Below, piece after piece: positions 9,669-48,812 of a stretch of DNA of 64,000 nucleotides. The notes under the pieces were generated by a model, which was not told where the DNA came from, did not search any database, and worked only from the letters and a program-made list of their open reading frames with translations. Positions within the stretch are counted from its first letter, which is position 1. Each line of letters begins with the position of its first letter. Source of the DNA: a virus. Position numbers and translations under genes: made by a program. The stretch lies in the IMG/VR virus record IMGVR_UViG_3300048573_000442; one strand, 5' to 3'.

Positions 9669-10235
9669 TTAGTTATCAAGACCGTACCATTTTACTACGC
9701 TGTATCTTGCTCCTTTTGTGACAGGCAGAACTTCATGTGGATAGCTTATATTTGAATGGAAAATTATAGTTGAACCAATCGCAGGTTTAATTTTTAACGG
9801 GTTCCTCATTTCATCTTTTTCGAAATGAAGCACTAATTCCCCGCCTTCATACTCAACATTTAAATAGGTAATGGTTGTTATAAATCTCCATGGCGCGGAT
9901 TTTATAAGTGTCCCACTTGCGTCTATAAACTCCGAATCCGTGTGTATCCTAAAATAAGAACTATTACTTTCATCGTATTTTAGAAATTGAATCGGTTCTA
10001 CATTTTTTAATGAGAATAAATTTTGTGTATGCCATTTAACACAAAAATCAATCCGTTCTTCTATGCTTTTGTAAACTTCGGGCGGCACGCATATGTTTTC
10101 TGAAGTCCTGAAAGCTTGTGAGTTTCCTAAATTGTAAACTGTTGATTTTGATTTATCAAATCCCTTAATAGCATTGATAATAGTTTCACATTGCGAAATA
10201 GTAAAAGTTTGAATATTTAGGTGACTTTTAATCAT
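9669..10235 (-). CDS. 2OG-Fe(II) dioxygenase, prolyl-4-hydroxylase-like
   Basis: HTD...YLNVEYEGGEL...HEVLPVTKGARYSVVKW (HxD...H...RxS). Confidence 0.9.
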   Translation of the reverse strand: MIKSHLNIQTFTISQCETIINAIKGFDKSKSTVYNLGNSQAFRTSENICVPPEVYKSIEERIDFCVKWHTQNLFSLKNVEPIQFLKYDESNSSYFRIHTDSEFIDASGTLIKSAPWRFITTITYLNVEYEGGELVLHFEKDEMRNPLKIKPAIGSTIIFHSNISYPHEVLPVTKGARYSVVKWYGLDN

Positions 10236-10236
10236 G

Positions 10237-10896
10237 CTAATTTAATGACCCTTGGTAGTTTATCGGGGCGAAATGGCAAAACATACCAAGTACCCATTCG
10301 AGACTTGTTGGCATTTGCGGTCTACCGTGTAACGTCCTGGTCCCCGAATAAACAAAAGCGTCCCCGGGATTTAAGTTTGCGTTAATTAAACCATTTTGCG
10401 TTTGTAAAATAAGGGGCCATTCTTTTACCTTCGAATTATCAGAAGAATCAATTATTATAGAAACGTTCCATGTACATGCAGGCCTTCCGTCAACGTGAAA
10501 TTGAAGACCCGAACCTTTTTTATAACATGCGGTAAACGTATATGAGGGCTTTGCATCTTCTGGCAGAATGGATTTTATAAACGGTGCTATGAGCTCGTGG
10601 ACAAATCTTGACAGCGGCGCATTGTGGGAAGCAGTTCTATTTGTTTCAACTGTTTCAACTGTTTCAAATACAATTTGCTGATTTCCGAAAAAAGATTGGC
10701 TAATTAAATCGCAACATCCCCGCGTCAAAAGGTTTGGAATAAGAACTCCCCCATTAAGAGCGAGGCCCTGTTTAAGCAAGCTGGTGTCATATAAAGTTCT
10801 TTCCTCTATTAGGTCAGAAGAAGGCAAATTGATTTTTAGGCCATGATGGTACGGCCAATGAACTTCTCGAGATTTCAAGCCATCAAATTTATTCAT
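10237..10896 (-). CDS. 2OG-Fe(II) dioxygenase
   Basis: FHVDGRPAC...LNPGDAFVYSG...LHGR. Confidence 0.8.
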   Translation of the reverse strand: MNKFDGLKSREVHWPYHHGLKINLPSSDLIEERTLYDTSLLKQGLALNGGVLIPNLLTRGCCDLISQSFFGNQQIVFETVETVETNRTASHNAPLSRFVHELIAPFIKSILPEDAKPSYTFTACYKKGSGLQFHVDGRPACTWNVSIIIDSSDNSKVKEWPLILQTQNGLINANLNPGDAFVYSGTRTLHGRPQMPTSLEWVLGMFCHFAPINYQGSLN

Positions 10897-11713
10897 ACAG
10901 GATTTTCTTATAGAAGCTTCTTATGGAGTTGTAATCATCTTTATCAACAAATGCTTTATCTAATGCTTTATGAAAAACAGCGTTTCCCCGTTTTGCACAC
11001 TCGGATTGTATCCTATATATATTATCGCTATTGTTAGGAAGCTGACTCCTTATGGTCTTCAAATAATTTATGGGGAGAAGATCAAAAATCAGATGCGTTC
11101 TATATTCTTTTCCGAAATTTATCGCTGAATGTGGATCCATGTTGTTAATTATATAATTACTATCAACATCGAGGTTATCAAATTCATGGATCTGGAAATT
11201 GATGTCAGTTTTAGTGTTTGAGCAATATTCGTTACTGATTATCGGTATGTGAATTTTTTCTGCCCATTTATGGGCCACGTAGCCATCGACATGTGGCCTT
11301 AGCACTTCTCCGGGACCCAAAACAGATAGGCATACAGAAGAACCCTTCCATTTTTCGCCTGTTGATGATTCAAACAAAACAATAAATTTGCTTATTATTG
11401 ATCTTATTGAAGCCAACAATTCTTCATCAAATTCGAAACCGGCATCACTATATGGAGCGTTTCTATCTAAATTTCCGACTATTTCTTCAATAGCCGGTAT
11501 GATTCTTATCGTACTAGTAAAAGCTTTTTCATTACAAATATCTTTAGAATTAGCAAAATCATAATTTAATAAGAATTTTTTAATACGCTCTTTTTCAGAA
11601 GAGATTTCTACTTCATCAAGTATTTTTATAAATGACGGCTGTTGAGTCAAAAAACTTTGGAAATCGTGATTATGCTTAAACTTATGCTGATGTAAAAATT
11701 TGCTAACTATCAT
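10889..11713 (-). CDS. Asp/Asn beta-hydroxylase-like 2OG-Fe(II) oxygenase
   Basis: PHVD...KIHIPI...HSAINFGKEYRTHLIFD. Confidence 0.85.
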   Translation of the reverse strand: MIVSKFLHQHKFKHNHDFQSFLTQQPSFIKILDEVEISSEKERIKKFLLNYDFANSKDICNEKAFTSTIRIIPAIEEIVGNLDRNAPYSDAGFEFDEELLASIRSIISKFIVLFESSTGEKWKGSSVCLSVLGPGEVLRPHVDGYVAHKWAEKIHIPIISNEYCSNTKTDINFQIHEFDNLDVDSNYIINNMDPHSAINFGKEYRTHLIFDLLPINYLKTIRSQLPNNSDNIYRIQSECAKRGNAVFHKALDKAFVDKDDYNSIRSFYKKILYE

Positions 11714-13307
11714 ATTTCACCTCGTATAGGAAGTCCCCAAAAACAAACCATTTTAAGTTATTTGTTTTGCAGAAGTTGAATAAATCAGAGAGGGTATTTA
11801 TAAAACCGCGCCCATTAAAGTTCAACGATGTATTACAAAGAACGCCGTACCCAGATAGTTCTTTAAAATCTTTTAATAAAAAATAAATTTTTTCATTTTG
11901 AGTTTTCGTGACGGTTTGAATCCTGGCGCTGTTATCTATATGAGTTACGCCAGGAAGCTTGTCAGTTTTTAATTTTTCAAAGAACAGCATATATGGCGAT
12001 TCGTATCCTGTTGGCACGTCAAAGTGCAAACTTGCATCTTCCTGTAAAACCATTGGGGCAACCGGACGGTAAGATTCTCTCTGTTTGATAGTGTTTAGTT
12101 TATTTTTAATGTCAGCATTTAATGGCGACGCAAGTATAGATCTATTTCCGAGAGCTCTCGGACCTATCTCCGCTCTACCTTGAACAACGGGGATTATTTC
12201 CCCATCAAATAAAAGCTTAGCTATTAATTTACTATTATAGTCGCGCTTTGTTATAGAATTTTCATCAATATTATCGTAAAATGGGGCTTCTCCAGCATAA
12301 ACATCCCATTTTATTTTAGCAGACCCTGTTATTCTATACTGCGCCTCAATAGCAGTGCCGATAGATGATCCGGAGTCGTCTGTGCATGGAGCCACAAAAA
12401 CATCAGAGAACAATTTAGTTTCTCTTAATGCTGTATTCCAATCGCAATTTAACCCGCAGCCCCCAGAAATAAGCAGCGGAATATTTTGTTTTACGTAGGG
12501 CCTGATTTCAGTGATAATATGTTCTATTATCATATCAGAAAACAGTTTTGCAAAATCGCAAAAAAGTTGATCAGTTACTTTTAGCGGTAGAATTCCAATA
12601 TGATTTAGCTCATTTAAAACGAATTGTACTTGCTCACTAGTTTTTCTTTTTATCACGAATTGGCGTATCATTAATTTAATAGAGTTTTTATATTTTTCTA
12701 TTAAAGATTTATCCAGTTTGGATAAATCTGCAAATGATATAAGGGCCATCAGTTTACCGGCCCCTCCATTGTCTATTATGGATGGCTTTTTAAACTTTAC
12801 GGTGTTGTAAAGAGCGGAGTAAAGAGTTCCAATTGCATTTATATTTACATCGCACTTGACAATGTTCAAATTTTCGGTTATATAGTAAAAATTGCTTATA
12901 GCTCCCTCATAAACCAGGCAATACGCCCTTTGCCCATTTTCGTAAGGGGACATTCCATATGCTTGCATAATATGGGATAGTTCATGAGTTGATTGAAACA
13001 GCTTTACGTTATTTCCAAACATTTCGACGTCAGTGATGCTGTAATTAGTATTTAAAATATCGGAATTATTTGATACTCTGTATCCAAGCCCCTCTGTTTT
13101 GGTGTCTTCATAATGCCATCCCGAAATACAAAATATATTAGGGAATTTTTTACAATGTTTTGCAGTTTCAACAAATGTAATTGGAGATAAGTTTGTGTAT
13201 CTCAAATTATTATTTTTTTCAGATTCAAACAGGCCTATTAATTTGTTACTGGTTTCATCTATTAATGCGTAACTACCATTATGAGAATTTTTTCCGCTAA
13301 ATATCAT
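11703..13307 (-). CDS. O-carbamoyltransferase (NodU/CmcH/TobZ family)
   Basis: HELSH, GKLMAL, SGGCGLNCDWN, PCTDDSGSSIG, GRAEIGPRALGNRSILA, RESYRPVAP, LCNTSLN. Confidence 0.93.
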   Translation of the reverse strand: MIFSGKNSHNGSYALIDETSNKLIGLFESEKNNNLRYTNLSPITFVETAKHCKKFPNIFCISGWHYEDTKTEGLGYRVSNNSDILNTNYSITDVEMFGNNVKLFQSTHELSHIMQAYGMSPYENGQRAYCLVYEGAISNFYYITENLNIVKCDVNINAIGTLYSALYNTVKFKKPSIIDNGGAGKLMALISFADLSKLDKSLIEKYKNSIKLMIRQFVIKRKTSEQVQFVLNELNHIGILPLKVTDQLFCDFAKLFSDMIIEHIITEIRPYVKQNIPLLISGGCGLNCDWNTALRETKLFSDVFVAPCTDDSGSSIGTAIEAQYRITGSAKIKWDVYAGEAPFYDNIDENSITKRDYNSKLIAKLLFDGEIIPVVQGRAEIGPRALGNRSILASPLNADIKNKLNTIKQRESYRPVAPMVLQEDASLHFDVPTGYESPYMLFFEKLKTDKLPGVTHIDNSARIQTVTKTQNEKIYFLLKDFKELSGYGVLCNTSLNFNGRGFINTLSDLFNFCKTNNLKWFVFGDFLYEVKYDS

Positions 13308-13810
13308 TTAGCCCCCTTGTTATTTTTTATAATCAGTTTCCATGGAGAGATATCTGTTTCATCATGGACGATTACTATGCTTTTTACAGATTTTTTTATA
13401 TTTATCGTGTGCAATAAGGCAGTTTGTTCTTTGGTAAGATTTATAGTTCCACCTTCAGAAATAATGTATTTTTGTTGCCCTATCGTTAATTCCCCCTCAC
13501 CAGATAAAAAGAACAATGTTCTGTTGCAAATCCCATCTAATAAATTGTTTGGGTAAAATGTGGAATTATGAAGTTCTGGATTTGTCGCACTAACGACAAA
13601 GGATTCTTTTATTTTATGATTTTCTGGAATTAGCGATTTGCAAAATTTTTCATACTCTAGAGCTAAACTGTTCGAGTTTGGATCCAAAAAATGAAATAGG
13701 ACTAATGCATGGGCACAATAATTTTTATCGCTCAAAAAGTATCTAGGGACGTGAGGAATATCATCCCTAAAGTATACGGCGCCCAAAATGTTCAGGAAAT
13801 TATCAGCCAT
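13304..13810 (-). CDS. Cupin / oxygenase-like protein
   Basis: LFFLSGEGELTIG...ISEGGTINL double-stranded beta-helix pattern. Confidence 0.45.
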   Translation of the reverse strand: MADNFLNILGAVYFRDDIPHVPRYFLSDKNYCAHALVLFHFLDPNSNSLALEYEKFCKSLIPENHKIKESFVVSATNPELHNSTFYPNNLLDGICNRTLFFLSGEGELTIGQQKYIISEGGTINLTKEQTALLHTINIKKSVKSIVIVHDETDISPWKLIIKNNKGAK

Positions 13811-15356
13811 GCGAAACCAAAGATTTAAAATATGTATTGTACTTAGCGTTCATATGATAAGACAGAAGATGGTAATTTAAAAAGTTTTTGTTAGCTATGA
13901 TTTTTTTATTAGAATACCCTAAAGTATTTAGGTACGGGATGCTGAAAGCAATATCAAATGATCTGCCTATGCTTTTCATGTATGAATTTACTTCTTTATG
14001 AAGATCATTACATCCTTTTTGAGAGGTGCCGTATAATTCGTTTTTCCAATTACCGTCTGGCAGAATTTCATACCCGTATTTTATCGAATTTATTTCAAAT
14101 TCAGATTTGTTGATCGCTTCTCCCCCACTACGTAAACCCAATTCATTAAAGGATACGGTGTGGAGAGGAAAATTAAAATCAACCACTCTTTGTACCCAAG
14201 CCTCCATTGTTTCGTATGTGTCGTACGGAAGCCCTAAAATAAAGCCGCTCATTGTATAAACACTATCCCCCCAGGACTCTCTGCATTTATAAAGTGTTTC
14301 AATATGTTTTTCGATATTTCCGCCTTTTCCTATACAAGCCGCCGCTTTTTGGTTTAATGTTTCCATTCCAAATATTATTGACACGCAGCCCAAGTCTTTT
14401 ATAAGTTGTATTTGTTCGTTATGAGCCCCTATTAAATCTAACCTGGCGTAAGAAGCAAAATTAAAGTCAAATGGCAGTTTTCCAACAACTTTTAAAAGCG
14501 TTTCCAATTTTTTGGTTGAATCATTAAAAGTGTCATCAGAAATTACATATTTCGTTATTCCCCATTTTTCATAATTTTCCATGAGCTCTGAATATAAAAC
14601 ATCAGGTTTTTTTAAATAGTCGTTTTTAGATTTTCCATTTAACGGGAACGCACAAAATTTGCATTTAAAAATACATCCCCTGCTCACTTCAATAGGAAGC
14701 ACTTCCCCTGGTTGAATACAGTCACTCGTTTCATATTTAATAATAGATGAGCAAAAATCAAAACCGTCGGCTTTAGGGTTGTTGTTCACTATTCTTTGAC
14801 CATTTTCTAATTTCGGCATCCAAAAAGGATTTTTTTTGTCTTTATATTTTAGGTAATCAGCTACCTGAGTTTCTGAATACCCTAAAAATTTATAATCAGA
14901 TATATGGCCATCTGATTTATCTGCCTGCGCCCCGCCGATAATAAAGTCGCAATCCGTTTTTTTAGTTTTTACATATCGTTTAAGATCAATCAGCTGATTC
15001 CATGGTAAATAGAAAGGGTTGTCTGATATCACATGAGAAGACTTTAAATTTCTAGTATTATTTTTCTCGGCACGATTAAAATAAATCTTATAGGAATTAG
15101 AAAAAAACGTGGATGAAAAACCGACAAACATAGTGTTTTCATTCATGAACTTATCCAATAATAACTTAACAGGATCCGTATTTTCTAATGTTAATATGTT
15201 CCAACCTTCTATTACCTGAACCTCGATTCCAAGTTTTCTAAATTCGGAAGCTATTCTGTAGGCTCCAGCTGTTCTGTGCCTAATTACGCCAGATAGTTCT
15301 ATGCAATCGTTAAAAATGATGCCATTTTTGGGGGCCATTTCATTTTGTTGGTTCAT
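13803..15356 (-). CDS. B12-binding radical SAM enzyme
   Basis: EVSRGCIFKCKFC (CxxxCxxC), ISDDTFN, FGMETLN, GFILGLPYDT; N-terminal cobalamin-domain-like region (GAYRIAS...VGFS...IIGG). Confidence 0.88.
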   Translation of the reverse strand: MNQQNEMAPKNGIIFNDCIELSGVIRHRTAGAYRIASEFRKLGIEVQVIEGWNILTLENTDPVKLLLDKFMNENTMFVGFSSTFFSNSYKIYFNRAEKNNTRNLKSSHVISDNPFYLPWNQLIDLKRYVKTKKTDCDFIIGGAQADKSDGHISDYKFLGYSETQVADYLKYKDKKNPFWMPKLENGQRIVNNNPKADGFDFCSSIIKYETSDCIQPGEVLPIEVSRGCIFKCKFCAFPLNGKSKNDYLKKPDVLYSELMENYEKWGITKYVISDDTFNDSTKKLETLLKVVGKLPFDFNFASYARLDLIGAHNEQIQLIKDLGCVSIIFGMETLNQKAAACIGKGGNIEKHIETLYKCRESWGDSVYTMSGFILGLPYDTYETMEAWVQRVVDFNFPLHTVSFNELGLRSGGEAINKSEFEINSIKYGYEILPDGNWKNELYGTSQKGCNDLHKEVNSYMKSIGRSFDIAFSIPYLNTLGYSNKKIIANKNFLNYHLLSYHMNAKYNTYFKSLVSHG

Positions 15357-15930
15357 AGATATCCACTATCAAAGAATACCTAGAAAGCTCCGAATGGTTT
15401 TTTACTTCATGAATTCTTAAGTTATCAAAACACCAGACTTCCCCCTTTTTAATAGAAAAATCAGCACCACCAACAGTAAAAATGGCCCGTTCGGTGTTTT
15501 GTAGACCTATCTGTAATCTATGATGGTGGGAATAGTATTCCCCCCGGTCTAAATGGGGAAGAACCTTTGCAAAAGGTTTCATTATTGACAGATAAATTTG
15601 CCCAATATGCTGAGATTTATAAAATCCTTTACAAATTTCAATAATATTGTTTAGTTCTGGGTGAAGATTATAATACTTTTTATCTAGATAAAAAGTATTA
15701 TTCGTTATTTTGCTAAAATTGATCGCTGGATTTTTACCTTCATCCCATACCGAAGACCTCGATAAATTAATAAATGTCCTACCTTCTTTAAGAGCAACAT
15801 CATTAGCTACTCTCCAGTCAGAGTTATTAATTAAATTTATTTTTTCATATAATTGATCTATTAGTCTTTCATCCAGTGTATGGATTAAGTAAAACGGCGT
15901 TTTTTCTTTCATATTTCGCTCACATCGCAA
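15340..15930 (-). CDS. Asp/Asn beta-hydroxylase-like oxygenase
   Basis: PHLDRGEYY..HHRLQI...FDNLRIHEVKN...RYSLIVD. Confidence 0.88.
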   Translation of the reverse strand: MRCERNMKEKTPFYLIHTLDERLIDQLYEKINLINNSDWRVANDVALKEGRTFINLSRSSVWDEGKNPAINFSKITNNTFYLDKKYYNLHPELNNIIEICKGFYKSQHIGQIYLSIMKPFAKVLPHLDRGEYYSHHHRLQIGLQNTERAIFTVGGADFSIKKGEVWCFDNLRIHEVKNHSELSRYSLIVDIYEPTK

Positions 15931-16472
15931 ACTATTGAATACCTAATCGTGCTATCTTTATTTTGAACGCTGTGCGTTTTTTGATTATCAAAACACCAGC
16001 ATTCTCCCGTTTTCATATTTACAATTTCTCCGCCAACACAAAAATCAGCATTTGAATCTGATCCATTTAGCGCTATTTGAATTCGATGATGAGCTAAATA
16101 ATATGGTCCCCGGTCTATGTGCGGGTGAACTATTGAACCCAATTCCATCTTTGAAAGATAAACTTGTCCAAAGTGTTTAGCGCCATACAGATCCTTTATT
16201 TTAAAAATGATTTGTTCGACATTTGGGAGCCTAGTCAATATTTTGCAAAATTGAAATGTTCCAACTGAATCACTTGACGCGCCGCTTTTATAAGGAGTGG
16301 ACACCCATAGTGGAGAATCCGTAATGCTGATGTATTTTCTCCTATCGTTTAATATAGAAAGTTTAGATATTTTCCAATCAGATTCTGTTAACGCTTTGAC
16401 TTCTGATAAAGCAGCGTCAACTAAATCATTGTCTAATTGCGCAACCAGTTTTAAGGGCTTTAATTCTATCAT
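15909..16472 (-). CDS. Asp/Asn beta-hydroxylase-like oxygenase (paralogue of 15340-15930)
   Basis: PHIDRGPYY..HHRIQI...FDNQKTHSVQN...RYSIVCD. Confidence 0.88.
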   Translation of the reverse strand: MIELKPLKLVAQLDNDLVDAALSEVKALTESDWKISKLSILNDRRKYISITDSPLWVSTPYKSGASSDSVGTFQFCKILTRLPNVEQIIFKIKDLYGAKHFGQVYLSKMELGSIVHPHIDRGPYYLAHHRIQIALNGSDSNADFCVGGEIVNMKTGECWCFDNQKTHSVQNKDSTIRYSIVCDVSEI

Positions 16473-17065
16473 AGTGATAATTCTTCTTTTAAGGTGTATG
16501 ATTTATTGGCCAAAGCCCGGTCATTTACTAGCATTTCATGACTTGACGGAGTTGTAAAATCTATAATCATATGTATTCTTACGGAATTATGAGTATTTTT
16601 TGCAGTGTGGATTTTACGATTGTTAATAATCCACACTTCATTTTGTTTCATTTCGCATTCAACTGCGGTGCCATCTTCATTAATATTTGCGTAATAGCTC
16701 CCCTCGCTTTTAAGCACAACATGAGTGCGTCTGCAAAGAGAATGAAAATAAATCCTATCGCTGTGGGGATACACTGCAGAGTTGGGTTTTACAAAACTTA
16801 ACTCTATTCTATATGGAACCAATCCTTTTAAATCATCATATTTTTGCAATTCTTTTAAAATAGGCGCGCACCGTAAAAGCGCAATATTATCATACGGTTT
16901 TCCGTTGGCTACAGGAAGTATTAATCTACAATCGTCTCTATTAAAAACTGTTTCCGTTCTTTTCATCGCGTTATCAACACCTACTGTTTGACAATACGAA
17001 GAAAGATCGTTTATAAGTTCTTCTTCTAATACGCCCAAACGCTTATTGTAAAATGTTTCGTTCAT
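16469..17065 (-). CDS. Asp/Asn beta-hydroxylase-like oxygenase
   Basis: PHSD...RRTHVVL...NNRKIHTAKN...RIHMIID. Confidence 0.85.
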   Translation of the reverse strand: MNETFYNKRLGVLEEELINDLSSYCQTVGVDNAMKRTETVFNRDDCRLILPVANGKPYDNIALLRCAPILKELQKYDDLKGLVPYRIELSFVKPNSAVYPHSDRIYFHSLCRRTHVVLKSEGSYYANINEDGTAVECEMKQNEVWIINNRKIHTAKNTHNSVRIHMIIDFTTPSSHEMLVNDRALANKSYTLKEELSL

Positions 17066-17832
17066 GATAAAAGATTTCTAAATTCATTTGTAAATTTTCC
17101 ATCAATTCTTAAGCTCCAAGTCATTGATGGAAAAGCATCGGCTCCGTGAATATCAAAACTGTTAAACCACGAAGATTGCCCCCTTATATAATGCTTTGTA
17201 TTTGTAGCTTCGTCTAACACATAAAATGGTTTACTATTTTGCTTGGGCCTAATCCATATAAATTCATGCTGATGTGGTTTATCAGCTATATAATCTCTTG
17301 TTCCATTGGCATGATGTAAATCACTGTGTTCAGTTACAACGCAATAATGCTCATTAACAAAAAATAATACTCTTCCTATTTCAGAAAAAGGTAATTTATA
17401 AATCCAGTTTATAAGGTTTGGAAAATATTTCTTATTTTCGTCCCAGTCGGTGTGAAGTTCTTTATCCAATAATTTGTAATCATTGGTCCTGATGTTTCTT
17501 ATGTAGACGCTGTAGCCAGCGTTATACAAATTATATTTTAACTTTAGGTATAACCTTTTTTGATTAAGAGTCATTCCGTTTGTTGCGGCCATAATTGAAT
17601 CGTAATCTTTATGCTTTGGGAGCCCCCCTCTATTATAATAGCTTCCACCCTCTAGATTGTAAAGATCTTCTTCCCTCTTCTCGAAAACGCCAGGGCCCCA
17701 GCTACCAGCAACCGTGCTGCTTCTAGAAAGGCCAGTTATAATTTCTTCGGTAAGGTTGTTAAATTCTTCCACATTGATAAAAGAATCTAATTCTATCATT
17801 GGCTTATTAAAAATGCCTTTCATTTTATCCAC
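17062..17832 (-). CDS. 2OG-Fe(II) oxygenase-like protein
   Basis: EHSD...HEFIW...FNSFDIHGAD...SLRIDG. Confidence 0.65.
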   Translation of the reverse strand: MDKMKGIFNKPMIELDSFINVEEFNNLTEEIITGLSRSSTVAGSWGPGVFEKREEDLYNLEGGSYYNRGGLPKHKDYDSIMAATNGMTLNQKRLYLKLKYNLYNAGYSVYIRNIRTNDYKLLDKELHTDWDENKKYFPNLINWIYKLPFSEIGRVLFFVNEHYCVVTEHSDLHHANGTRDYIADKPHQHEFIWIRPKQNSKPFYVLDEATNTKHYIRGQSSWFNSFDIHGADAFPSMTWSLRIDGKFTNEFRNLLS

Positions 17833-18848
17833 TCCAAATCTATAAAATCGCCATCTACCAACATATCGAACGGGTGTTTTTTCATAAAAAACTCGTTCGA
17901 TTCATATCTGTTAGTTTCCCTATTCAGTTTAAACCACGGGTTTAAACCTATAACTAAAGCTATTCTTATATCCTCTTCTTTATATTTTTTGGAATCGTCC
18001 CATGCGGCCCTATGCAGCTTTGTGGTATCCCAAGAATGCCCTAAAAATTGTTCGAAGTAGAAATTGCCCAGCAATTTATCTTCTAGATAAAAATTGCTAT
18101 TTGTCAATAATGGGATATTGATTCTAAAATTAGTAAAATACGATTCATCGGAGTGCCACAAATATTCTTTGTCGTATTTAGAAGAAGAAAATCCAGGCCT
18201 TAACAGTGCGCATCTGCTTCTTACTATATCACATTTAAATTTAGATAAAAAATCGCCCCAATATCCCGTTGAAACGTTTGGGGTCAATTTGTTAAATCCC
18301 CATGTGTCAAAATAACTATTCTTGACAGTTAAGTCGACGCTGCGGTAAGACGTGTCTGGTGGCAGTTCTATATTAAATCCTTTAGTTCGCGCGTATTTTA
18401 CGCCTTCGAGTATACCTTTTGAAGCGATTAAATTATAAAAATAAGTTGTTTGTTTATATTCTTCCAAATATATAAACAATTTTATCCCTTCCGGAGTATT
18501 AAAAATCGGTTTAAGATTTATTTTTTCCATTCCGAGGGAGCTAACATTTGCGTCTACGTTCATGTCCGGATTATATGTTACGCTAAACCCGCCGTAGGTT
18601 TTGCTTCTATTTTTTGACTGAGAAACGCTAGACGTAAAACCCTGAAACTCATTTTTTTCCAATATCTCATTGGTATGGGATAATACTTTTGAAAAATCTA
18701 CATCCTTAACCTTGTATTGAAAATATCTATCAGGTTTATGAATAGGCTCAAATTTAAAGTTTTTGTCAATTCCGCACTTTTGTTCCATGTAAGTGTGCAA
18801 ATTCAAATTTGCTGGAACTTCATCTTTAGCAAATGAAAATGATTTCAT
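17820..18848 (-). CDS. 2OG-Fe(II) oxygenase-like protein
   Basis: WHSDES...RINIPL...WDTTKLHRA...RIALVIG. Confidence 0.65.
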   Translation of the reverse strand: MKSFSFAKDEVPANLNLHTYMEQKCGIDKNFKFEPIHKPDRYFQYKVKDVDFSKVLSHTNEILEKNEFQGFTSSVSQSKNRSKTYGGFSVTYNPDMNVDANVSSLGMEKINLKPIFNTPEGIKLFIYLEEYKQTTYFYNLIASKGILEGVKYARTKGFNIELPPDTSYRSVDLTVKNSYFDTWGFNKLTPNVSTGYWGDFLSKFKCDIVRSRCALLRPGFSSSKYDKEYLWHSDESYFTNFRINIPLLTNSNFYLEDKLLGNFYFEQFLGHSWDTTKLHRAAWDDSKKYKEEDIRIALVIGLNPWFKLNRETNRYESNEFFMKKHPFDMLVDGDFIDLEWIK

Positions 18849-18849
18849 A

Positions 18850-19611
18850 TTATTTCTTTCTTAATAGGCAAATTACTAAATAAGACAAATCTATTTCATA
18901 CCATTTTTTTGCAAAATTTGGATTGCCTGGGTCCTTATGATGGTTATTATGTAAAGATAGGCCAGCAGTAAAAAACGATAATGTCCAGATATTTCTAGAG
19001 TTATCTTTTGTTTCAAAGGATCTATACCCAAAATGCTTTAAATGACAGACCGTATTAACCAAATAATTTAAATGTGATGAAAAAATAACTGCTAGAATAT
19101 AAGAACCGAAAAAACGTGTTGAGAAAACAGAATCAAGCCCAATTAATAATATTGAAAACCCGTACAAAATTACATATTGATTATTATGCAATTTCATTAG
19201 AAATTTGTCTCTTAGTAAATCTGGGGCTTTTCTATATGCAGAGGTTAAATTTTCTTTCAAGAGCCATAAAAAATAACTATGCAAAACCCCTTTTGTCGGT
19301 GTATGTGGATCCTTTTCTTGGTCTGCATAGGGGTGGTGAACCCCCCTATGAACAGCTGCCCAAAAGAAAGCTGTTCCCTGCCCCCCAAGGCTTCCGATAA
19401 GTATAAGCGCATTTTTAATCCATTCAGGCGTAGAAAAAGCTTTATGGGCAAGAAGGCGATGTATGCCTATTTCTATCGAAAATTGAATTAAGAATAGGAA
19501 TATTAAAGTGGCTACAGTGTTAAAGCTTCCCATGAACGCAACAAATATAAAAATAATGTTAGTAGGAAGAACCCATTTCCAAAAATGGTTCAAATTGAAA
19601 ATAGCTTTCAT
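18850..19611 (-). CDS. Membrane fatty-acid (acyl-CoA delta-9 type) desaturase
   Basis: Three His boxes HRLLAH, HRGVHH, HNNHH; hydrophobic segments; WYEID. Confidence 0.9.
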   Translation of the reverse strand: MKAIFNLNHFWKWVLPTNIIFIFVAFMGSFNTVATLIFLFLIQFSIEIGIHRLLAHKAFSTPEWIKNALILIGSLGGQGTAFFWAAVHRGVHHPYADQEKDPHTPTKGVLHSYFLWLLKENLTSAYRKAPDLLRDKFLMKLHNNQYVILYGFSILLIGLDSVFSTRFFGSYILAVIFSSHLNYLVNTVCHLKHFGYRSFETKDNSRNIWTLSFFTAGLSLHNNHHKDPGNPNFAKKWYEIDLSYLVICLLRKK

Positions 19612-20180
19612 TTTATGCTCAATCTTATTGTCGTGTCTATTGGATAGTATCTTTTTCCGTATAAAGAATCCCAGAAGAAGGAAAATTTTGGTTTTGCCAT
19701 TGCAGGAACATTTTCAATTTCGAAAAGTTTATATTCGGCTCTAGCTGGCAGTTTAGACCATATTTTTTCGTGGGCCGCCTTATATTTAGTAGGTATTAAA
19801 TTGTAATGCTGGTAAAACCCCAATTTTTCAGTTTCTTTTAAAACGTGAGTAAACAATTCCCCCATATAATACAAAGAATTTTCAGAAGATTTATTTTCTT
19901 CGTGTGTTATCATTCTACGTAATATCCAAAATGGCAATGAGTCGCTAAATTGCACATTTATTGAACTCAAAAGGTCACCATTATCATCTATGAGCCCATA
20001 GGACCTGAACAATAAATTGTTATTTAGGAAATAGCAATTTTTTACAGTTTCATTTACGCTTGGATTGTTGATTAGTTCTTTTAGTACTTCTTCGTCTTTT
20101 ATTCCGAAAAAGGATTTTTGCGATTGAACCAAATTAGAGTATTGCAGCCAATTATCGATTGTTAATTGAATTATTTTCAT
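19608..20180 (-). CDS. Hypothetical protein, possible acyltransferase (GNAT-like) fold
   Basis: 190 aa within the cluster; only a weak beta/alpha pattern. Confidence 0.35.
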   Translation of the reverse strand: MKIIQLTIDNWLQYSNLVQSQKSFFGIKDEEVLKELINNPSVNETVKNCYFLNNNLLFRSYGLIDDNGDLLSSINVQFSDSLPFWILRRMITHEENKSSENSLYYMGELFTHVLKETEKLGFYQHYNLIPTKYKAAHEKIWSKLPARAEYKLFEIENVPAMAKPKFSFFWDSLYGKRYYPIDTTIRLSIK

Positions 20181-21081
20181 ATGTTGATATAAGTTGTTTC
20201 ACTGGTATATATGTGGTATCTGGAACACAAAGATCGCATTCATTATAAATTCTCTTATTCGTCATAGACAATCTATCTAATATAGATTCAGTTCCTGTCA
20301 TTTTGTATCTTAAAGATAGGCCCATGGCTTCTCTAAAAATGTAAGGTTTTATAGCAGATGATGTCAAAGTTTCAGACTGACTAAACAAATGCTTCATTCT
20401 TCTAGTATTTATGAAAGAATAAAAAAGCTCAGGCGAGTATAATATAAAGTTTGGACAACCAACCTGCCCATTTAAATAAAATGCTTTCCACCAAGAAAAC
20501 GTGTGCTCTCTTACGCAGTAATACCAATCGAAATCCTCTCCAATTTTTTTACATTCAAATACGGGGTCATCTCCAAGTATAAGATAGGAAGATTTTGATA
20601 ATAATTCTATAGCTTTAAGATAAGGCGCATAACCAGATTGTGAAGACTGATATTTTTTGCATAAGTCAAATGATTCCCCCGAGTCGTGTAAGTTAACAAC
20701 ATCTAATTCTATTACATGCAATTTGAGATTAAAACCTTTAGCAAAACTGATAGCTTTATTTTTGTCATAACTATTAAATCCGAAATCCAAAAAGACTAAA
20801 TCGGGAACCTTTCCGTATAAGAGAAAGGATTTAGCTATGAACTCGCTATCTATTCCGCCAGAATAGAGGATTGACATGTTGGAAACGCCATAGTGCTCGT
20901 CCATTATGTTCGCTGTTATAATAGCTTCTTCATTAAATCCGTAATTTTTTCTAATTGATGGGTTGAATGAGAATTTCATGACATCATTCACATGGGACCT
21001 TTTATTAAAGAATCCATCGTTGTACCCTATTTTAACATAATCATCCCATGTAAAGCTTTGCTTCATAATTTGACAATCCAT
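20152..21081 (-). CDS. PP-loop ATP pyrophosphatase family protein (asparagine synthetase/QueC-like)
   Basis: ILYSGGIDSE PP-loop. Confidence 0.65.
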   Translation of the reverse strand: MDCQIMKQSFTWDDYVKIGYNDGFFNKRSHVNDVMKFSFNPSIRKNYGFNEEAIITANIMDEHYGVSNMSILYSGGIDSEFIAKSFLLYGKVPDLVFLDFGFNSYDKNKAISFAKGFNLKLHVIELDVVNLHDSGESFDLCKKYQSSQSGYAPYLKAIELLSKSSYLILGDDPVFECKKIGEDFDWYYCVREHTFSWWKAFYLNGQVGCPNFILYSPELFYSFINTRRMKHLFSQSETLTSSAIKPYIFREAMGLSLRYKMTGTESILDRLSMTNKRIYNECDLCVPDTTYIPVKQLISTYENNSINNR

Positions 21082-22634
21082 TAAAATTTACCAGTGCCGT
21101 CCCAAGTTGGTGTAGGAGTTGGTGTAGGAGTTGGTGTAGGAGTTGGTGTAGGAGTTGGTGTAGGAGTTGGTGTAGGAGTTGGTGCCGCAACATACGGCCA
21201 AACCTGGACCCACACGTTAGCCACAGTGTAAAGCATTAATCTTCCCTGTGGCGATAATGAAGTGCTACTGTCGTACCAGGTTTGACCTGCTTGAGGATTT
21301 GAGGGGGGCGAACTGTTTGCTTGGTGGTTTATAGCATTTATAGCATTTTTCACAAATGCCGTAGTTGCAATAGTCGTATCATTCGAAGCAATGTTTGGCG
21401 TAGGGGCAGTTGGTGCGCCCAATAATGACACAGTTTCAACTGGTGCACCAAGTATGATCGTGCTAATTTGCGCGTTTTTGCTTTTGGATATTACCTTACC
21501 GTGGGTATTATCATAAATCCCGATTTCATTGTCGCTATTATACAAATACGCTTGAGATGCATTTGTTCCAGTTTTTTCAACCAGCACTCTCGCTTCACTA
21601 TTACCAACTTGCTTAATTACTCCATTAAACGTTTTATTGCCGTCTATCGTCTGATCGCCAGTTAAGTTGACCGTATCTGCATTCACTCCCAAATTCACCC
21701 GCGCAGTTGCTGCATCTGTTGCACCAGTCCCGCCATTAGCGATAGCAACAACGCCGATCACGTTTTCTGAAGTTCCTGGCACATGTGTAACAGCAGAACC
21801 AATTTCTCCCCAAGAAGTAAAAACTTGCTGTGCTTTATCCCTTAGTACCTCAACCTGCGTCAAACTTGCATTAACGCCATCGGGCATTAGTACCTTTAAA
21901 AACATTCTGAAACTTCCGCCAGTAGTACGATTGATAACCGTCCAAACTTTTTTATACGTGTTGGGGAATATCAGCGTCACATCAGAAGTTAAAACGCCAT
22001 TAAATATGAAAATTGGGTCAACTGCGGCTTCAGGGCCTATATAAAGCGTCGGTCCACTATGCGCAGTCAAATCTTGTATCTGAACACCGTTAACGACGCT
22101 ATGAACGAAAGCAGTAGTTGCAACCTGAGTCGTTTCAGTAGTAGCAATCGGTGTGGGAGACGTAGGGATCCCAGTGAGTGCTGGAGAATTGACATCGGCT
22201 TTGGGGGCAACTGCGTCTACAATTGCTTGTTGCAAGATTGCTGCAGAATCTGCAATCTCTTGCTGGAGATCAGAAACAATTGTGCCTAGAGCAGAAGACT
22301 GCCAAGCTCGAACCCAACCTATTGCTCCACTGGTAAAGTAAACATTTGTTTCTGCGGTAACTGTGGCGGTTTCAACACAAAGATACAGCGCTTTGTCCAC
22401 AGGGCTGAACCAAAGCTGACCAATTGTTGGGTTTGATGGCGCAGTATTAGATGCGAAATTTTCAAGCAGCTTAATAAAATTCTCTTGTTGAATTTTACCA
22501 TAACTAGCGGTGCCTTTGCCAGTAAGCTTTAAAGAAGTTGAAGTTGCATCAGTTGTCCTCTCCGGGACAATGATAGAAGATTTTCCAGGAATGCCTTCAG
22601 TTCCGGCACTTTCCCAATCAAGATTGTATGTCAT
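21081..22634 (-). CDS. Tail fibre / baseplate-attached fibre protein with a C-terminal Pro-Thr tail
   Basis: N-terminal TSLKLTGKG...QENFIKLLENFAS..APSNPTIGQLWF; two PTxPTP...ATTAFV fibre motifs; GGTGATDAATARVNLG; ends (PT)13WDGTGKF. Confidence 0.8.
   Translation of the reverse strand: MTYNLDWESAGTEGIPGKSSIIVPERTTDATSTSLKLTGKGTASYGKIQQENFIKLLENFASNTAPSNPTIGQLWFSPVDKALYLCVETATVTAETNVYFTSGAIGWVRAWQSSALGTIVSDLQQEIADSAAILQQAIVDAVAPKADVNSPALTGIPTSPTPIATTETTQVATTAFVHSVVNGVQIQDLTAHSGPTLYIGPEAAVDPIFIFNGVLTSDVTLIFPNTYKKVWTVINRTTGGSFRMFLKVLMPDGVNASLTQVEVLRDKAQQVFTSWGEIGSAVTHVPGTSENVIGVVAIANGGTGATDAATARVNLGVNADTVNLTGDQTIDGNKTFNGVIKQVGNSEARVLVEKTGTNASQAYLYNSDNEIGIYDNTHGKVISKSKNAQISTIILGAPVETVSLLGAPTAPTPNIASNDTTIATTAFVKNAINAINHQANSSPPSNPQAGQTWYDSSTSLSPQGRLMLYTVANVWVQVWPYVAAPTPTPTPTPTPTPTPTPTPTPTPTPTWDGTGKF
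21105..21182 (-). repeat. Perfect 12-bp tandem repeat x6.5 encoding (Pro-Thr)13
   Basis: (AGTTGGTGTAGG)n on the + strand. Confidence 0.97.
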
Positions 22635-22709: not shown

Positions 22710-22717
22710 TATTTATA
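22710..22717 (-). promoter_or_regulatory. T4-type late promoter TATAAATA for the fibre and tailoring operon
   Basis: Exact match about 75 nt upstream of ATG 22634. Confidence 0.7.
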
Positions 22718-22736
22718 TTGGAACCCAAAAACAACA

Positions 22737-22769
22737 CAGGCCGTTGTCCTCCTTTTGAGCAACGGCCTG
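22737..22769 (-). terminator. Hairpin/terminator downstream of phoH
   Basis: 10-bp stem CAGGCCGTTG/CAACGGCCTG followed by TGTTGTTTTT on the minus strand. Confidence 0.6.
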
Positions 22770-22842
22770 GTCCAAGTGATTAATCGAAAAGTCCTTTAAG
22801 GGTTAGAAATGCTTTTTTAATCTGGCAATCTCCTTTCAATGG

Positions 22843-28014: not shown

Positions 28015-28965
28015 TTAAACCGCCATTGTTGCTTTTATTACTGGATGATGTTTATACCCGATGATTTCAAAGTCTGACATTTTAAAATCATCGATGTTCT
28101 TGATACTCTTATTAATTGATAATGCGGGGGGTTCGAGAATAGTTCTAGATAACTGTTCTTCGACTTGAGGCAAATGATTTTTGTAGATGTGTGCGTCACC
28201 AATCGTCAAGATTAATTCGCCAGGTTCTAAATCAGTAACTTGCGCAATCATATGCGTCAATAGAGCATATGAAGCAATATTGAACGGGCACCCTAGAAAC
28301 AAGTCTTGGCTTCTAATATAGACTAAACAGTTTAGTCGGCCTTTTGCGCTAACATTAAAATTGGCAAACATATGACACGGAGGTAAAGCCATCTGATTTA
28401 ATTCGCCGACGTTATACGCTGTTAAAATCATCCGACGATCTTGTGGGTTAGTTTTAATCGTCTGAATAATATTGGCAACTTGATCGATATTGCGAACTTT
28501 TACCTTTGCCCCAAGGTAAGTATTCCCGCTTTCACCAGATGAAATATGATGATCGAAGCTTTCGATTTCATGCGACCTCCATTGCCTCCACTGCAACCCG
28601 TAAACTCGACCCAAATCATCTTCACCGAGCCGGTATTTATTCTTTAGCCAAGCATTTTCAGAGCCGGGTAAACCTGCTCCATTAGCATTGCCGCTCCAGA
28701 TAGTTGAACGCGTCTTATCCCCATAGGTAGTAAGGGCTAGATCTTTATTGTCTCGACTACTGCTTAAGAACCAAAGCAATTCGCCGGCGACAGGTTTCCA
28801 AAAAACCTGCTTAGTCGTCAAAAGTGGAAAACCTTCTTGCAAATCGCCGCGAATCTGGCGGCCAAATAATTTTCTGGTACCGACTCCAGTCCGATCCATA
28901 ACATCGTCGCCAGAGGTATAAACGTCCCGTAATAGGGATAGATATTCTTTTTCTAATTGATGCAT
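28015..28965 (-). CDS. thyA: Thymidylate synthase
   Basis: DRTGVGT, GFPLLTTK, ELLWFL, ALPPCH, RSQDLFLGCPFN, GDAHIYKNH. Confidence 0.97.
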   Translation of the reverse strand: MHQLEKEYLSLLRDVYTSGDDVMDRTGVGTRKLFGRQIRGDLQEGFPLLTTKQVFWKPVAGELLWFLSSSRDNKDLALTTYGDKTRSTIWSGNANGAGLPGSENAWLKNKYRLGEDDLGRVYGLQWRQWRSHEIESFDHHISSGESGNTYLGAKVKVRNIDQVANIIQTIKTNPQDRRMILTAYNVGELNQMALPPCHMFANFNVSAKGRLNCLVYIRSQDLFLGCPFNIASYALLTHMIAQVTDLEPGELILTIGDAHIYKNHLPQVEEQLSRTILEPPALSINKSIKNIDDFKMSDFEIIGYKHHPVIKATMAV

Positions 28966-47538: not shown

Positions 47539-48060
47539 TTAAACGAACGCTTCGACTACATAATACCAATAGGCATCTGAATCTGTTTCATCCGCATCCC
47601 CTGGATCGTCAGGTTCATAAATTTTAATAACGCGTCCTTTTACGCCTTTACGCATCATGAATTCATCCTGTACATTCTCGGGATGACCCGGACTGCTATG
47701 TTTTATCGATCTTCCCCATGAATGACCAGATGGCAACCTAATTTCAAAAATTGCCACATTTTCACTCGGCGTATCAAAATTGCCAGGTAGAATTACGCCT
47801 TGAATAACTCCATCTACACTGTTGCTGGTAGATTGAGCAAACTGCCACACTCCCCCAATTTTTAATTCTTGGATTGCACGTTTAGCCTTTTTACCAATTT
47901 CGGCACGGTAAACCACGCGAGGTTCTTTAAGAGGCGGTGATTCGTCAATCCATTTATCTAACTCTTGGCTTGGTATCGCTGCCTCAATCCATTTATCTAT
48001 AAAGTCTTGAATGTTTTCTGATTCAGTTACAGTTCGTAGGAGTTGATATTTTTTAATCAT
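47539..48060 (-). CDS. R-S-E clade ADP-ribosyltransferase (Alt/Mod-like catalytic domain)
   Basis: VVYRA, QSTSNS, IFEI, QDEFMMRKG. Confidence 0.7.
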   Translation of the reverse strand: MIKKYQLLRTVTESENIQDFIDKWIEAAIPSQELDKWIDESPPLKEPRVVYRAEIGKKAKRAIQELKIGGVWQFAQSTSNSVDGVIQGVILPGNFDTPSENVAIFEIRLPSGHSWGRSIKHSSPGHPENVQDEFMMRKGVKGRVIKIYEPDDPGDADETDSDAYWYYVVEAFV

Positions 48061-48812
48061 TTGAATTGGGAAGTTGGATAAAGTTTGGCGTAAGCTTCTT
48101 TAGAGATATGGATTTCCCCGGTCTTACTAAAATGATCTACTAAATAATAGTGCCGTGCATAAATGTGTAAGCTGGTAACAGTCCAATAAATTTTGCCGAC
48201 TTCTACGTTCAACTCAGCAGCCAGCCTTTCAAGGACATGTTGCTGCCATGCCAAATCATTTCGAAACCCAAATATAGAATCGTTGCTTCTCATTTGGACA
48301 TGTGCATTTAACGCCCCATTTCTAATAACGTATCCTACAGCATTAGTGCAAATAAAATCGCTGCGACCATTGAGATTATATTCTGACCACATTGTCGGGC
48401 GAGTATAAATCATAACAGCCCGTCGGGATTCTGGGTTCTGCTTGAGCTCCTTTAAACAATTTTCATATTGGTTGCCATTCCAATCAGAGAAAATAATTGC
48501 CCCGTAATTCGAATTGATAAACCCGTCTTTATCTGCGACAGCTTTCCAAATAGCTGGAGCACCTCCGGGAATGTCATTAACATTTAATGACAATGAGTTA
48601 TACCATTGTTCTTCACGCTTAACATAGTCCCAATTAACTTCGCCGAAAATTGCTTCTTCATCTGCAACAAATGAAGCCCCAACAATTTCGATCGTTGTGT
48701 TACCAGTCAACCCGGTCATTGAAGCTTCGCGATTGACTGTTGTGAATTGCTTTTCGGCCAAAAGGCGGGCGAATTCATTACGAATGTCTGAGACATTATT
48801 TTTATAAAGCAT
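48057..48812 (-). CDS. 42: dCMP hydroxymethyltransferase (T4 gp42-like)
   Basis: INSNYG, SRRAVMIYTRP, DFICTN, QMRSNDSIFGFRNDLAWQ (Asp at the TS-Asn177-equivalent position), SLHIYARH. Confidence 0.82.
   Translation of the reverse strand: MLYKNNVSDIRNEFARLLAEKQFTTVNREASMTGLTGNTTIEIVGASFVADEEAIFGEVNWDYVKREEQWYNSLSLNVNDIPGGAPAIWKAVADKDGFINSNYGAIIFSDWNGNQYENCLKELKQNPESRRAVMIYTRPTMWSEYNLNGRSDFICTNAVGYVIRNGALNAHVQMRSNDSIFGFRNDLAWQQHVLERLAAELNVEVGKIYWTVTSLHIYARHYYLVDHFSKTGEIHISKEAYAKLYPTSQFK

Follow-up and report, generated by a model that had tools for sequence, protein, structure and literature searches.

Phage fibres determine which bacteria are infected and, apart from rare glycosylation, are assumed to be plain polypeptides. 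What, then, do fourteen enzyme-type genes do when they directly follow a gene for a fibre? Such a run occurs in a stretch of 64,000 nucleotides from the IMG/VR virus record IMGVR_UViG_3300048573_000442 (the whole stretch is called the window below), where fifteen co-oriented open reading frames (ORFs) lie on the minus strand from position 22634 to 9669, with the fibre-like g01 at their head and the enzyme-type genes g02 to g15 behind it. The answer that we favour, tentatively and with a little less than even confidence, is that the enzymes of this cassette are expressed late and chemically tailor the C-terminal tail of the polypeptide encoded just upstream of them, which is here g01. All functions discussed below are inferred from sequence, fold and synteny.

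The evidence that carries this reading comes from the relatives of g02, a PP-loop protein that resembles ATP-dependent ligases. In a maximum-likelihood tree of 164 such ligases, g02 and the ligases of four other loci (L023, L024, L025, and L109) form one clade, supported by a value of 99 in the Shimodaira-Hasegawa-like approximate likelihood ratio test (SH-aLRT), and the loci in which the ligase is linked to a small carrier-like protein form a separate one. An earlier note on this DNA had proposed to look at whether homologous clusters are linked to fibre genes, and this proved to be so in the clade: in all five members a fibre-like ORF lies at most two genes upstream of the ligase, and its low-complexity tail is proline-rich or collagen-like. 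In the window, the tail of g01 is (PT)13 and ends with WDGTGKF; the tail of L023 is (PTGSPA)n and ends with VGGK, that of L024 is a collagen-like GPQ repeat ending with CGGK, that of L109 is (SP/VGSP)n ending with VGGK, and L025 has two fibre genes upstream, with an (SPVP)n tail that ends with PPG. The upstream protein of L109 is a tail-collar fibre (7e-30) encoded after baseplate hub and wedge genes, and in L024 head genes follow the cassette. When low-complexity segments are filtered, the fibre bodies are homologous for L025 and L109 only; thus, the tail rides on mostly unrelated bodies. This synteny is kept at 31-39% identity between the ligases and across a G+C range of 34-53%.

These tails are uncommon in the material examined. 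Proline-rich or collagen flags fall on about 1% of the ORFs in the fetched loci, for which both the ORF calling and the flag are crude, and a C-terminal GGK occurs in 3 of the 2,886 called ORFs, all three being upstream ORFs of the clade (L023, L024, and L109). An out-of-sample check was made with three further close relatives of the ligase, two of which lie on contigs too short to judge. The remaining one, L191, is a sixth syntenic relative outside the ligase tree; its cassette consists of the ligase, the GNAT protein, the desaturase, counterparts of g06 and g05, and two hydroxylases, at 31-50% identity, and upstream of it there is a 64-aa proline-rich peptide ending with EGGK in place of a fibre. 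The GGK end is therefore found in four of the six upstream ORFs, L191 being the fourth. Furthermore, among the fetched loci the genes for prolyl-hydroxylase-like proteins are confined to the clade and to the neighbouring locus L153, the upstream part of which is cut off, and the nearest solved relatives of the clade proteins are protein prolyl hydroxylases. From these comparisons, the conserved partner of the clade's cassette appears to be a flexible, proline-rich C-terminal tail, mostly GGK-ended and usually fused to a virion fibre, and such a pattern would follow from a role of the tail as substrate or carrier for the enzymes. The occurrence of a low-complexity, mostly GGK-ended tail upstream in every close relative turns what was a vague idea into one that can be approached directly by experiment.

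In the favoured reading, the cluster would be an accessory cassette of the structural module, acting on the tail encoded just upstream. Transcription would begin at the late-type box after the phoH terminator, and fibre and enzymes would be made together. The prolyl-hydroxylase-like g15 and the six enzymes of the PF05118 type might then hydroxylate residues of the (Pro-Thr)13 tract or a group attached to the tail, and the core formed by g02, g03, and g04 would attach an acyl or aminoacyl group at the Gly-x-Gly-Lys end via an amide bond and tailor this group afterwards. Phage-specific extras would follow, namely a radical S-adenosylmethionine (SAM) step by g10, perhaps a C-methylation, and the O-carbamoylation by g12 of a newly made hydroxyl. 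The tip of the fibre would finally bear an unusual, possibly lipid-like adduct affecting adsorption or stability.

A bolder form of this proposal concerns the way in which the tail is used. In the LysW amino-group carrier and PEARL scaffold-peptide pathways, the C-terminus of a small protein carries an intermediate that is tailored by several enzymes. The likeness is that the GGK-ended tail or peptide sits where the sister cassettes have a protein resembling an acyl carrier protein (ACP), although the tethering is putative, the ligases of those pathways are of the ATP-grasp and LanB-like kinds instead of PP-loop enzymes, and the carrier is here usually fused to a fibre. Because an ACP-like protein holds the position of the fibre in the sister cassettes, the tail might be both carrier and final acceptor. 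The proline-rich, GGK-ended fibre tail (the free 64-aa peptide in L191) would then be a new type of carrier replacing the acyl-carrier-like protein, on which a block tethered by the amide bond made by g02 is elaborated in place by the GNAT protein, the membrane desaturase, some eight hydroxylases, the radical SAM enzyme, and the carbamoyltransferase until the virion fibre ends in a complex, possibly lipid-like adduct. We regard this specific version as rather unlikely.

Both proposals have to be set against what is known of the wider family. For g02, 377 representative homologues came out of an exhaustive HMMER search. Loci were retrieved with a 6-sequence g02 alignment, the 25-sequence alignment being too divergent, and amounted to 80 from IMG/VR and 80 from metagenomes, the ORFs of which were labelled by profiles made from the cluster proteins; the percentages that follow refer to 129 distinct loci, each with at least 8 ORFs and a relative of the ligase. 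The desaturase is the commonest partner and stands beside the ligase in 74% of these loci, the GNAT protein in 57%; PF05118-like genes are present in 53% and a g10-like radical SAM gene in 29%. In 24%, an ORF of 72-81 aa directly upstream of the ligase encodes a carrier-like protein with the phosphopantetheine-site motif GLDSLDxVEL and a PP-binding score of 18.8 bits. Other cassette neighbours are TauD, Rieske, FA_hydroxylase, NMO-type, and additional GNAT proteins. By this count, the ligase-GNAT-desaturase core appears to be a widespread phage cassette, and no paper describing it was found in the literature. The carrier-like protein upstream points to carrier-tethered or lipid chemistry and not to classical RiPP logic (that of ribosomally synthesised and post-translationally modified peptides).

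In one carrier-linked sub-group (L041-L044, L152, and L174), a protein of about 850 aa is encoded three or four genes upstream of the ligase. It has a weak match to baseplate-wedge families, is proline-rich over a stretch close to the C-terminus, and terminates in a conserved sequence of the CNCDCWNL type; it may represent a second kind of substrate.

Several observations weigh against tail tailoring. Across the wider family, what precedes the core is a carrier-like protein or nothing that is evidently a substrate, and fibre-like genes are seldom found nearby; the core chemistry may therefore have targets other than fibres. All five fibre-linked loci belong to a single clade, and their linkage may go back to one event. 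The end motif is not uniform, since L025 tails end with PPG and the window's with GKF, and the upstream product of L191 is a free peptide and not a fibre. The cassette also contains enzymes of classically lipid type, the membrane desaturase and the hydroxylases of the LpxO/OlsC family. Finally, the mean G+C content of the fourteen enzyme genes is 34.2%, as against 44.5% for the fibre gene g01 and 40.2 ± 2.5% for the backbone; the block and the fibre thus have separate histories, and the enzymes were probably joined to it by insertion beside the fibre gene, in a neighbourhood that is a known insertion hot spot (PMC7029224).

These points lead to the question of whether the cassette makes or remodels a lipid instead. 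An acyl chain on an ACP of the phage or the host would be amide-joined to an amine, much as in an aminolipid, and then desaturated, hydroxylated, methylated, and carbamoylated, or else lipid A or membrane lipids of the host would be altered in the course of infection for superinfection exclusion or membrane fitness. In this reading the adjacency of the fibre would reflect a mere insertion into a hypervariable host-recognition region. LpxO and OlsC, both lipid hydroxylases, belong to PF05118, and an enzyme of the FA_hydroxylase family takes part in the Ols pathway as well; a gene of that family is present in sister loci. The carrier-like ORF upstream of the ligase and the predominance of the desaturase among its partners speak for a lipid as well, cyanophage desaturases of the g04 type are proven delta9 lipid desaturases (PMC5776448), the enzymes adjacent to pelagimyophage fibres were read by their authors as modifiers of the host envelope (PMC7029224), and a similar island lies beside the tail fibres of the cultured phage Mosig. 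Nevertheless, no ACP-like ORF was found in the 64-kb window, L020, or L023-L025, and enzymes for head groups, glycerolipids, or lipid A are absent. Compared with an ornithine-lipid or aminolipid pathway, the window has a GNAT protein and PF05118 proteins but neither an OlsA-like acyltransferase nor an ACP. The proline-rich tails found across the clade, their GGK ends, and the prolyl-hydroxylase-like genes would all be left unexplained by a lipid product, which we judge unlikely on balance. It is more improbable that the tail, or the L191 peptide, is a scaffold on whose C-terminal residues a small molecule is built, to be cleaved off as a diffusible product acting on the host or on competitors. 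The stand-alone 64-aa GGK-ended peptide that replaces the fibre in L191 and the carrier-like protein of the sister clades are in line with this idea; the closest relatives of g12 (about 45% identical) lie in bacteria near MFS (major facilitator superfamily) exporters, a nitroreductase, carbamoyl-phosphate synthase, or methyltransferases, and secondary metabolites were proposed as products of the dioxygenase array of Syn9 (PMC2938197). Yet no protease, exporter, or leader-recognition protein is encoded in the cluster, in four of the six cases a large virion-type protein carries the tail, and a location within tail modules suits an end product in the virion better. In this regard, the earlier note had recognised natural-product or RiPP tailoring logic in the cluster. 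Its tailoring part is partly supported, but the domain and profile searches found no protease, RiPP recognition element (RRE), or exporter among the 15 genes, a peptide of 64 aa occurs in L191 only, and the wider family suggests carrier or lipid chemistry; a classical RiPP cluster was rejected as the principal explanation, the candidate substrate being the tail of a 517-aa fibre.

The carbamoyltransferase g12 raises a different possibility, because the window also encodes a dCMP (deoxycytidine monophosphate) hydroxymethylase of the T4 gp42 type (48057-48812, minus strand; 3e-78 to the T4 enzyme) and the DNA of this phage probably contains hydroxymethylcytosine. In DNA hypermodification, g12 would convert 5-hydroxymethylcytosine (5hmC) to 5-carbamoyloxymethylcytosine, and its neighbours would be unrelated or would modify the base further. 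A phage carbamoyltransferase of the g12 superfamily was shown to make the corresponding deoxynucleoside, 5cmdC, and co-occurs with thymidylate-synthase homologues on modified contigs (PMC8670742); moreover, one bacterial homologue 45% identical to g12 adjoins a gene of the thymidylate-synthase type. Against this, g12 overlaps its neighbours in a cassette whose conserved core lacks it, gave no match in any sister locus, lies 35 kb from the hydroxymethylase gene, and belongs to a family found in many unrelated contexts, and the other 13 enzymes have no known role on DNA. DNA modification was rejected as the principal function of the whole cluster, given the absence of g12 from the sister cassettes and the lack of any DNA link among its neighbours, and as an account of the locus it seems to us very improbable indeed. 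DNA carbamoylation by g12 alone, which would leave the cluster unexplained, is less remote than that, though still improbable.

If the tail is indeed tailored, a hydroxylated, acylated, and carbamoylated fibre end would add a chemical layer to host recognition, many of the small "orphan" oxygenases in the genomes of T4-like marine and freshwater phages would gain a function, and a ligase-GNAT-desaturase chemistry so far uncharacterised would come to light. Use of the tail as a carrier would mean an undescribed protein-tethered biosynthesis together with an undescribed post-translational modification of virions, and a lipid product would mean that a pathway to an as yet undescribed amide-linked lipid is widespread among phages.

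Table 1. Features of the fibre-headed cluster and of the region just upstream of it, in window coordinates
Feature	Position	Strand	Evidence or remark
Terminator-like hairpin and U-tract, closing the upstream (phoH) unit	22722..22775	-	ΔG -22.5 kcal/mol, z -3.0 against shuffled sequences (RNA folding)
TATAAATA, box resembling a T4-type late promoter	22710..22717	-	75 nt 5' of the g01 ATG; putative function
g01, fibre-like virion protein, 517 aa, end AA(PT)13WDGTGKF	21081..22634	-	PHROG tail-fibre families
Perfect tandem repeat, 12 bp x 6.7, encoding (Pro-Thr)13	21105..21184	-	TRF, 100% matches
g02, stand-alone AsnB/QueC-like PP-loop ATP-dependent ligase, 309 aa	20152..21081	-	SGGIDS; Atlas
g03, GNAT-fold acyltransferase, 190 aa	19608..20180	-	AlphaFold2 (AF2) and Foldseek
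g04, membrane delta9-type fatty-acid desaturase-like protein, 253 aa	18850..19611	-	PF00487; His boxes
g05, PF05118-like cupin oxygenase, 342 aa	17820..18848	-	hhalign; Atlas
g06, PF05118-like cupin oxygenase, 256 aa (253 aa from ATG 17823)	17062..17832	-	hhalign; HSD...H
g07, Asp/Asn beta-hydroxylase-family oxygenase, 198 aa	16469..17065	-	PF05118 1.6e-8
g08, Asp/Asn beta-hydroxylase-family oxygenase, 187 aa	15909..16472	-	PF05118 4.8e-13
g09, Asp/Asn beta-hydroxylase-family oxygenase, 196 aa (190 aa from ATG 15912)	15340..15930	-	PF05118 9.3e-16
g10, class-B-like radical SAM enzyme, 517 aa (CIFKCKFC)	13803..15356	-	PF04055 1.5e-16
g11, 168-aa protein, cupin not verified	13304..13810	-	Cupin_2 E 0.034 only
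g12, NodU/TobZ-type O-carbamoyltransferase, 534 aa	11703..13307	-	PF16861, PF02543, NodU
g13, PF05118-family oxygenase, 274 aa	10889..11713	-	PF05118 1.7e-6
g14, cyanophage "ferrochelatase-domain" family, 219 aa, probable oxygenase	10237..10896	-	HxD...H motif only
g15, prolyl-hydroxylase-like 2-oxoglutarate (2OG)-Fe(II) oxygenase, 188 aa	9669..10235	-	PF13640 2.3e-16

The identities on which these readings depend (Table 1) were obtained from profile, motif, and fold comparisons, and most of those given in the earlier note from the letters alone were borne out. The fibre-like protein g01 matches many PHROG tail-fibre families (5e-17 to 1e-9) and contains two ATTAFV-type fibre motifs; its repeat varies in the population, with one extra 12-bp unit in the variant L017 extending the tract to (PT)15. 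The PP-loop assignment of g02 is supported by the SGGIDS motif, invariant in 25 homologues (S74, G75, G76, and D78), and by structural matches in Atlas, with template modelling (TM) scores of 0.81-0.85 to viral families of about 300 aa and 0.6-0.7 to Asn-synthase domains. A glutaminase domain is absent, and the Pfam and NCBIfam searches with g02 gave no match. A complex predicted for g02 and the C-terminal 63 residues of g01 scored 0.02, which speaks neither for nor against binding. The guess that g03 is GNAT-like was confirmed at the level of the predicted fold: the AF2 model, built from a 28-sequence alignment, has a predicted local distance difference test (pLDDT) value of 93.3, and Foldseek against the PDB returned SpeG/RimI-type GNATs with probability 1.0 and TM scores by target of 0.6-0.78. 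The Foldseek matches of g03 are to small GNATs, with no specific match to a lipid enzyme. The predicted His-box desaturase was likewise recovered in g04, which matches PF00487 (FA_desaturase) at 1.4e-18 and the DesA family at 4e-23, the latter below its cutoff, and which has the hydrophobic N-terminus and the boxes HRLLAH, HRGVHH, and HNNHH of delta9-type membrane desaturases, the HRxxxH box being kept in 124 of 127 homologues.

Of the eight oxygenases announced in the earlier note, six are PF05118-like. Four (g07, g08, g09, and g13) score 28-58 bits against this family, for which the gathering cutoff is 22.6, and g05 and g06 are tied to it through profile-profile comparison and Atlas only: hhalign links g05 to the g13 family with a probability of 97.8, g06 to the g09 family with 93, and g13 to the g09 family with 98, and g05 has Atlas features of 0.92-0.94 and structural matches to Asp_Arg_Hydrox clusters. 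The HxD...H motif is present in all six, in g06 as HSD...H. The six are old paralogues; the closest pair, g08 and g09, is just 36% identical (blastp 1e-39), which implies different specificities. The seventh, g14, is a probable oxygenase by its motif FHVDGR...H alone and matches phrog_2954 at 4e-20, with no profile link in hhalign to the other oxygenases of the cluster. For the eighth, g15, the best relative in the PDB is collagen prolyl 3-hydroxylase 1 (3.7e-6), followed weakly by the hypoxia-inducible factor (HIF) prolyl hydroxylases; the family PF13640, to which g15 belongs, also includes enzymes other than prolyl hydroxylases.

Of the B12 radical SAM enzyme named in the earlier note, the CxxxCxxC core is present in g10, but the B12-binding domain PF02310 was not detected in it and appears only weakly (6e-4) in the 39.5%-identical homologue of L020; the best NCBIfam matches, to the class B enzymes PhpK, HpnJ, and RiPP C-methyltransferases, are all far below their cutoffs. 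The radical SAM relatives of g10 first found in IMG/VR, in loci L001-L005, were set aside, as these loci have no other cluster gene in common with the window. One of them, the phage contig L001, has four radical SAM genes beside a DNA ligase gene (10004-19380), and the first of the four alone is related to g10, at 35% identity. The cupin proposed for g11 could not be verified: Cupin_2 is its sole domain match, the AF2 model made without an alignment has a pLDDT of 42, and labelling with the cluster profiles revealed no g11 homologue in any fetched locus.

The carbamoyltransferase g12 is a complete member of the TobZ/NodU type. Both domains of this type, a Kae1-like N domain and a YrdC-like C domain, are present (PF16861, Carbam_trans_C, at 2e-53; PF02543 at 1e-27), the match to NodU reaches 2e-77 and 261 bits, under the equivalog cutoff of 1000, and the PDB relatives are the carbamoyltransferases TobZ and GdmN and the novobiocin enzyme (8.5e-35 to 1.7e-25). 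The protein is about 45% identical to a bacterial family of about 520 aa. Its top "phage" match, MT837218, was set aside as it looks bacterial (alginate lyase, nitroreductase, and MFS genes), and the carbamoyltransferase of XacN1 was discarded as a parallel because of its different context, among glycosyltransferases. In a plasmid-like Salmonella contig (L009/L010, 7567-13078), a 45%-identical relative of g12 is one of five genes that stand together, the others encoding a thymidylate-synthase-like protein, an NTPase_I-T, an amidohydrolase, and an MFS transporter; the set resembles a route to a modified pyrimidine nucleoside.

Two lesions were seen in population variants. A 24-nt in-frame deletion in g08 of L019 (window 15968-15991) removes FDNQKTHS, including the distal metal-binding His, and a 1-nt deletion in L016 at window 15107 splits g10 into 97 and 409 aa. 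Either these accessory enzymes are dispensable or the lesions are assembly errors.

The tight packing of the fibre gene and the fourteen genes behind it, which was the starting point of the earlier note, is confirmed: each of the 14 junctions is within -29 to +1 nt. Of the 71 same-strand junctions that the window has outside the cluster, 33 (46%) are of 1 nt or less; tight spacing alone was therefore rejected as proof of an operon. The chance of 14 tight junctions in succession is 0.46^14, or about 2e-5, and the run is exceptional in length and not in kind, overlap being common in this genome. As to the late promoter claimed upstream, the TATAAATA box is there, just after the phoH hairpin, but the octamer occurs 6 times in the window against 4.9 expected, not above chance; because of this lack of enrichment, late expression of g01-g15 is inferred only, from the position of the box and the T4 precedent. 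Another copy of the box lies inside g12 (11795-11802, minus strand), 82-89 nt upstream of the g13 start, and could be an internal late promoter for g13-g15 or a chance occurrence. Scans for sigma-70 promoters and terminators inside the cluster stayed at chance level, and the next gene downstream of g15, an RNA ligase, has a sigma-70-like box of its own.

The window as a whole represents the early arm, for DNA metabolism, of an uncultured T4-like myovirus, with backbone genes for both topoisomerase II subunits, a true thymidylate synthase (28015-28965), a UvsW-type helicase, two RNA ligases, and PhoH. Among cultured phages, the Xanthomonas phages BUDD and X1 are nearest, with a large topoisomerase subunit about 60% identical; no comparable cluster is annotated in the 41 kb around the topoisomerase genes of BUDD. 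The same phage is present in five JGI metagenomes and one SRA run at 99.5-100% identity, on contigs of up to 147 kb, and the protein cluster of g02 is recorded on contigs of up to 198 kb. Among 50,697 GenBank phages, neither megablast with the whole cluster nor tblastn with the radical SAM protein g10 and the PP-loop protein g02 gave a match.

How does the cassette compare with systems already described? The earlier note knew of no characterised system composed in this way, and as far as experiments go this holds. Three papers, however, describe or predict related arrays (PMC2938197, PMC3037559, and PMC7029224), none of which has experimental support. In T4-like cyanophages, Iyer et al. described the array of ten dioxygenases of Syn9 (gp41-54; PMC2938197), and the cyanomyovirus genes recorded by Sullivan et al. 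include those for multiple 2OG oxygenases, for "ferrochelatase-domain" proteins, and for carbamoyltransferases (PMC3037559); the proposed roles were secondary metabolites, DNA repair, and control of 2OG levels (PMC2938197, PMC3037559). These arrays resemble the window in that many diverged small oxygenases stand together, carbamoyltransferases recur, and the g14 family is common to both, but they include halogenases and JmjC-type enzymes, with neither a ligase-GNAT-desaturase core nor a tailed fibre reported. Zaragoza-Solas et al. described fibre-plus-enzyme islands of pelagimyophages and favoured modification of the host O-chain (PMC7029224). The island of the Pelagibacter phage Mosig EXVC030M (52-74 kb) is hypervariable, and its tail fibres adjoin Asp_Arg_Hydrox, GNAT, TauD, FA_desaturase, radical SAM, carbamoyltransferase, and methyltransferase genes; unlike the present cluster it also includes genes of the sugar aminotransferase and epimerase kinds, a relative of g02 was not detected in it, and it is part of the structural region and not, like the cluster, of the early arm.

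Partial parallels exist for single enzymes. The prolyl 4-hydroxylase of the chlorovirus PBCV-1 acts on viral proline-rich repeat proteins, so that there, too, an oxygenase of this type and Pro-X repeats are encoded by one virus, although PBCV-1 is a eukaryotic virus with a single such enzyme and no ligase, GNAT, desaturase, radical SAM, or carbamoyltransferase partner, and g15 is nearer to collagen prolyl 3-hydroxylase 1. The viral fatty-acid desaturases (vFADs) of cyanophages share with g04 the delta9-type His boxes of a phage-borne membrane desaturase (PMC5776448), but they are described as stand-alone auxiliary metabolic genes acting on host C16 lipids, whereas g04 is a fixed partner of the ligase and GNAT protein. 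The 5hmC carbamoyltransferase system of uncultured phages likewise combines a TobZ/NodU-type enzyme with a dCMP hydroxymethylase in one phage (PMC8670742); here, the genes for g12 and the hydroxymethylase lie apart, and g12 stands within a cassette that would tailor a protein or lipid.

A predicted precedent for tailoring of a fibre tail is bacterial. Iyer et al. predicted that operons with dioxygenases of the beta-hydroxylase family modify co-encoded collagen-like or tail-collar proteins (PMC2938197). As in the window, diverged Asp/Asn-beta-hydroxylase-type dioxygenases and an acetyltransferase stand beside a putative low-complexity or tail-collar substrate, and the hydroxyl groups would be derivatised afterwards; unlike in the window, the operons are bacterial, hydroxylation is paired with sulfation, and they are predictions only. 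The cassette described here belongs to a phage and is built on an AsnB-like ligase, a GNAT protein, and a desaturase, to which a carbamoyltransferase, a radical SAM enzyme, and a tail that in its clade is mostly GGK-ended are added. The ligase-GNAT-desaturase core, the carrier-like protein, and the GGK-ended tail are new with respect to all three papers, being absent from each. In one of the retrieved loci (L192, 734-1495), a 253-aa protein with a sulfotransferase-like RTGTSS motif adjoins a 431-aa relative of the ligase and recalls the hydroxylase-sulfotransferase operons of Iyer et al. (2010).

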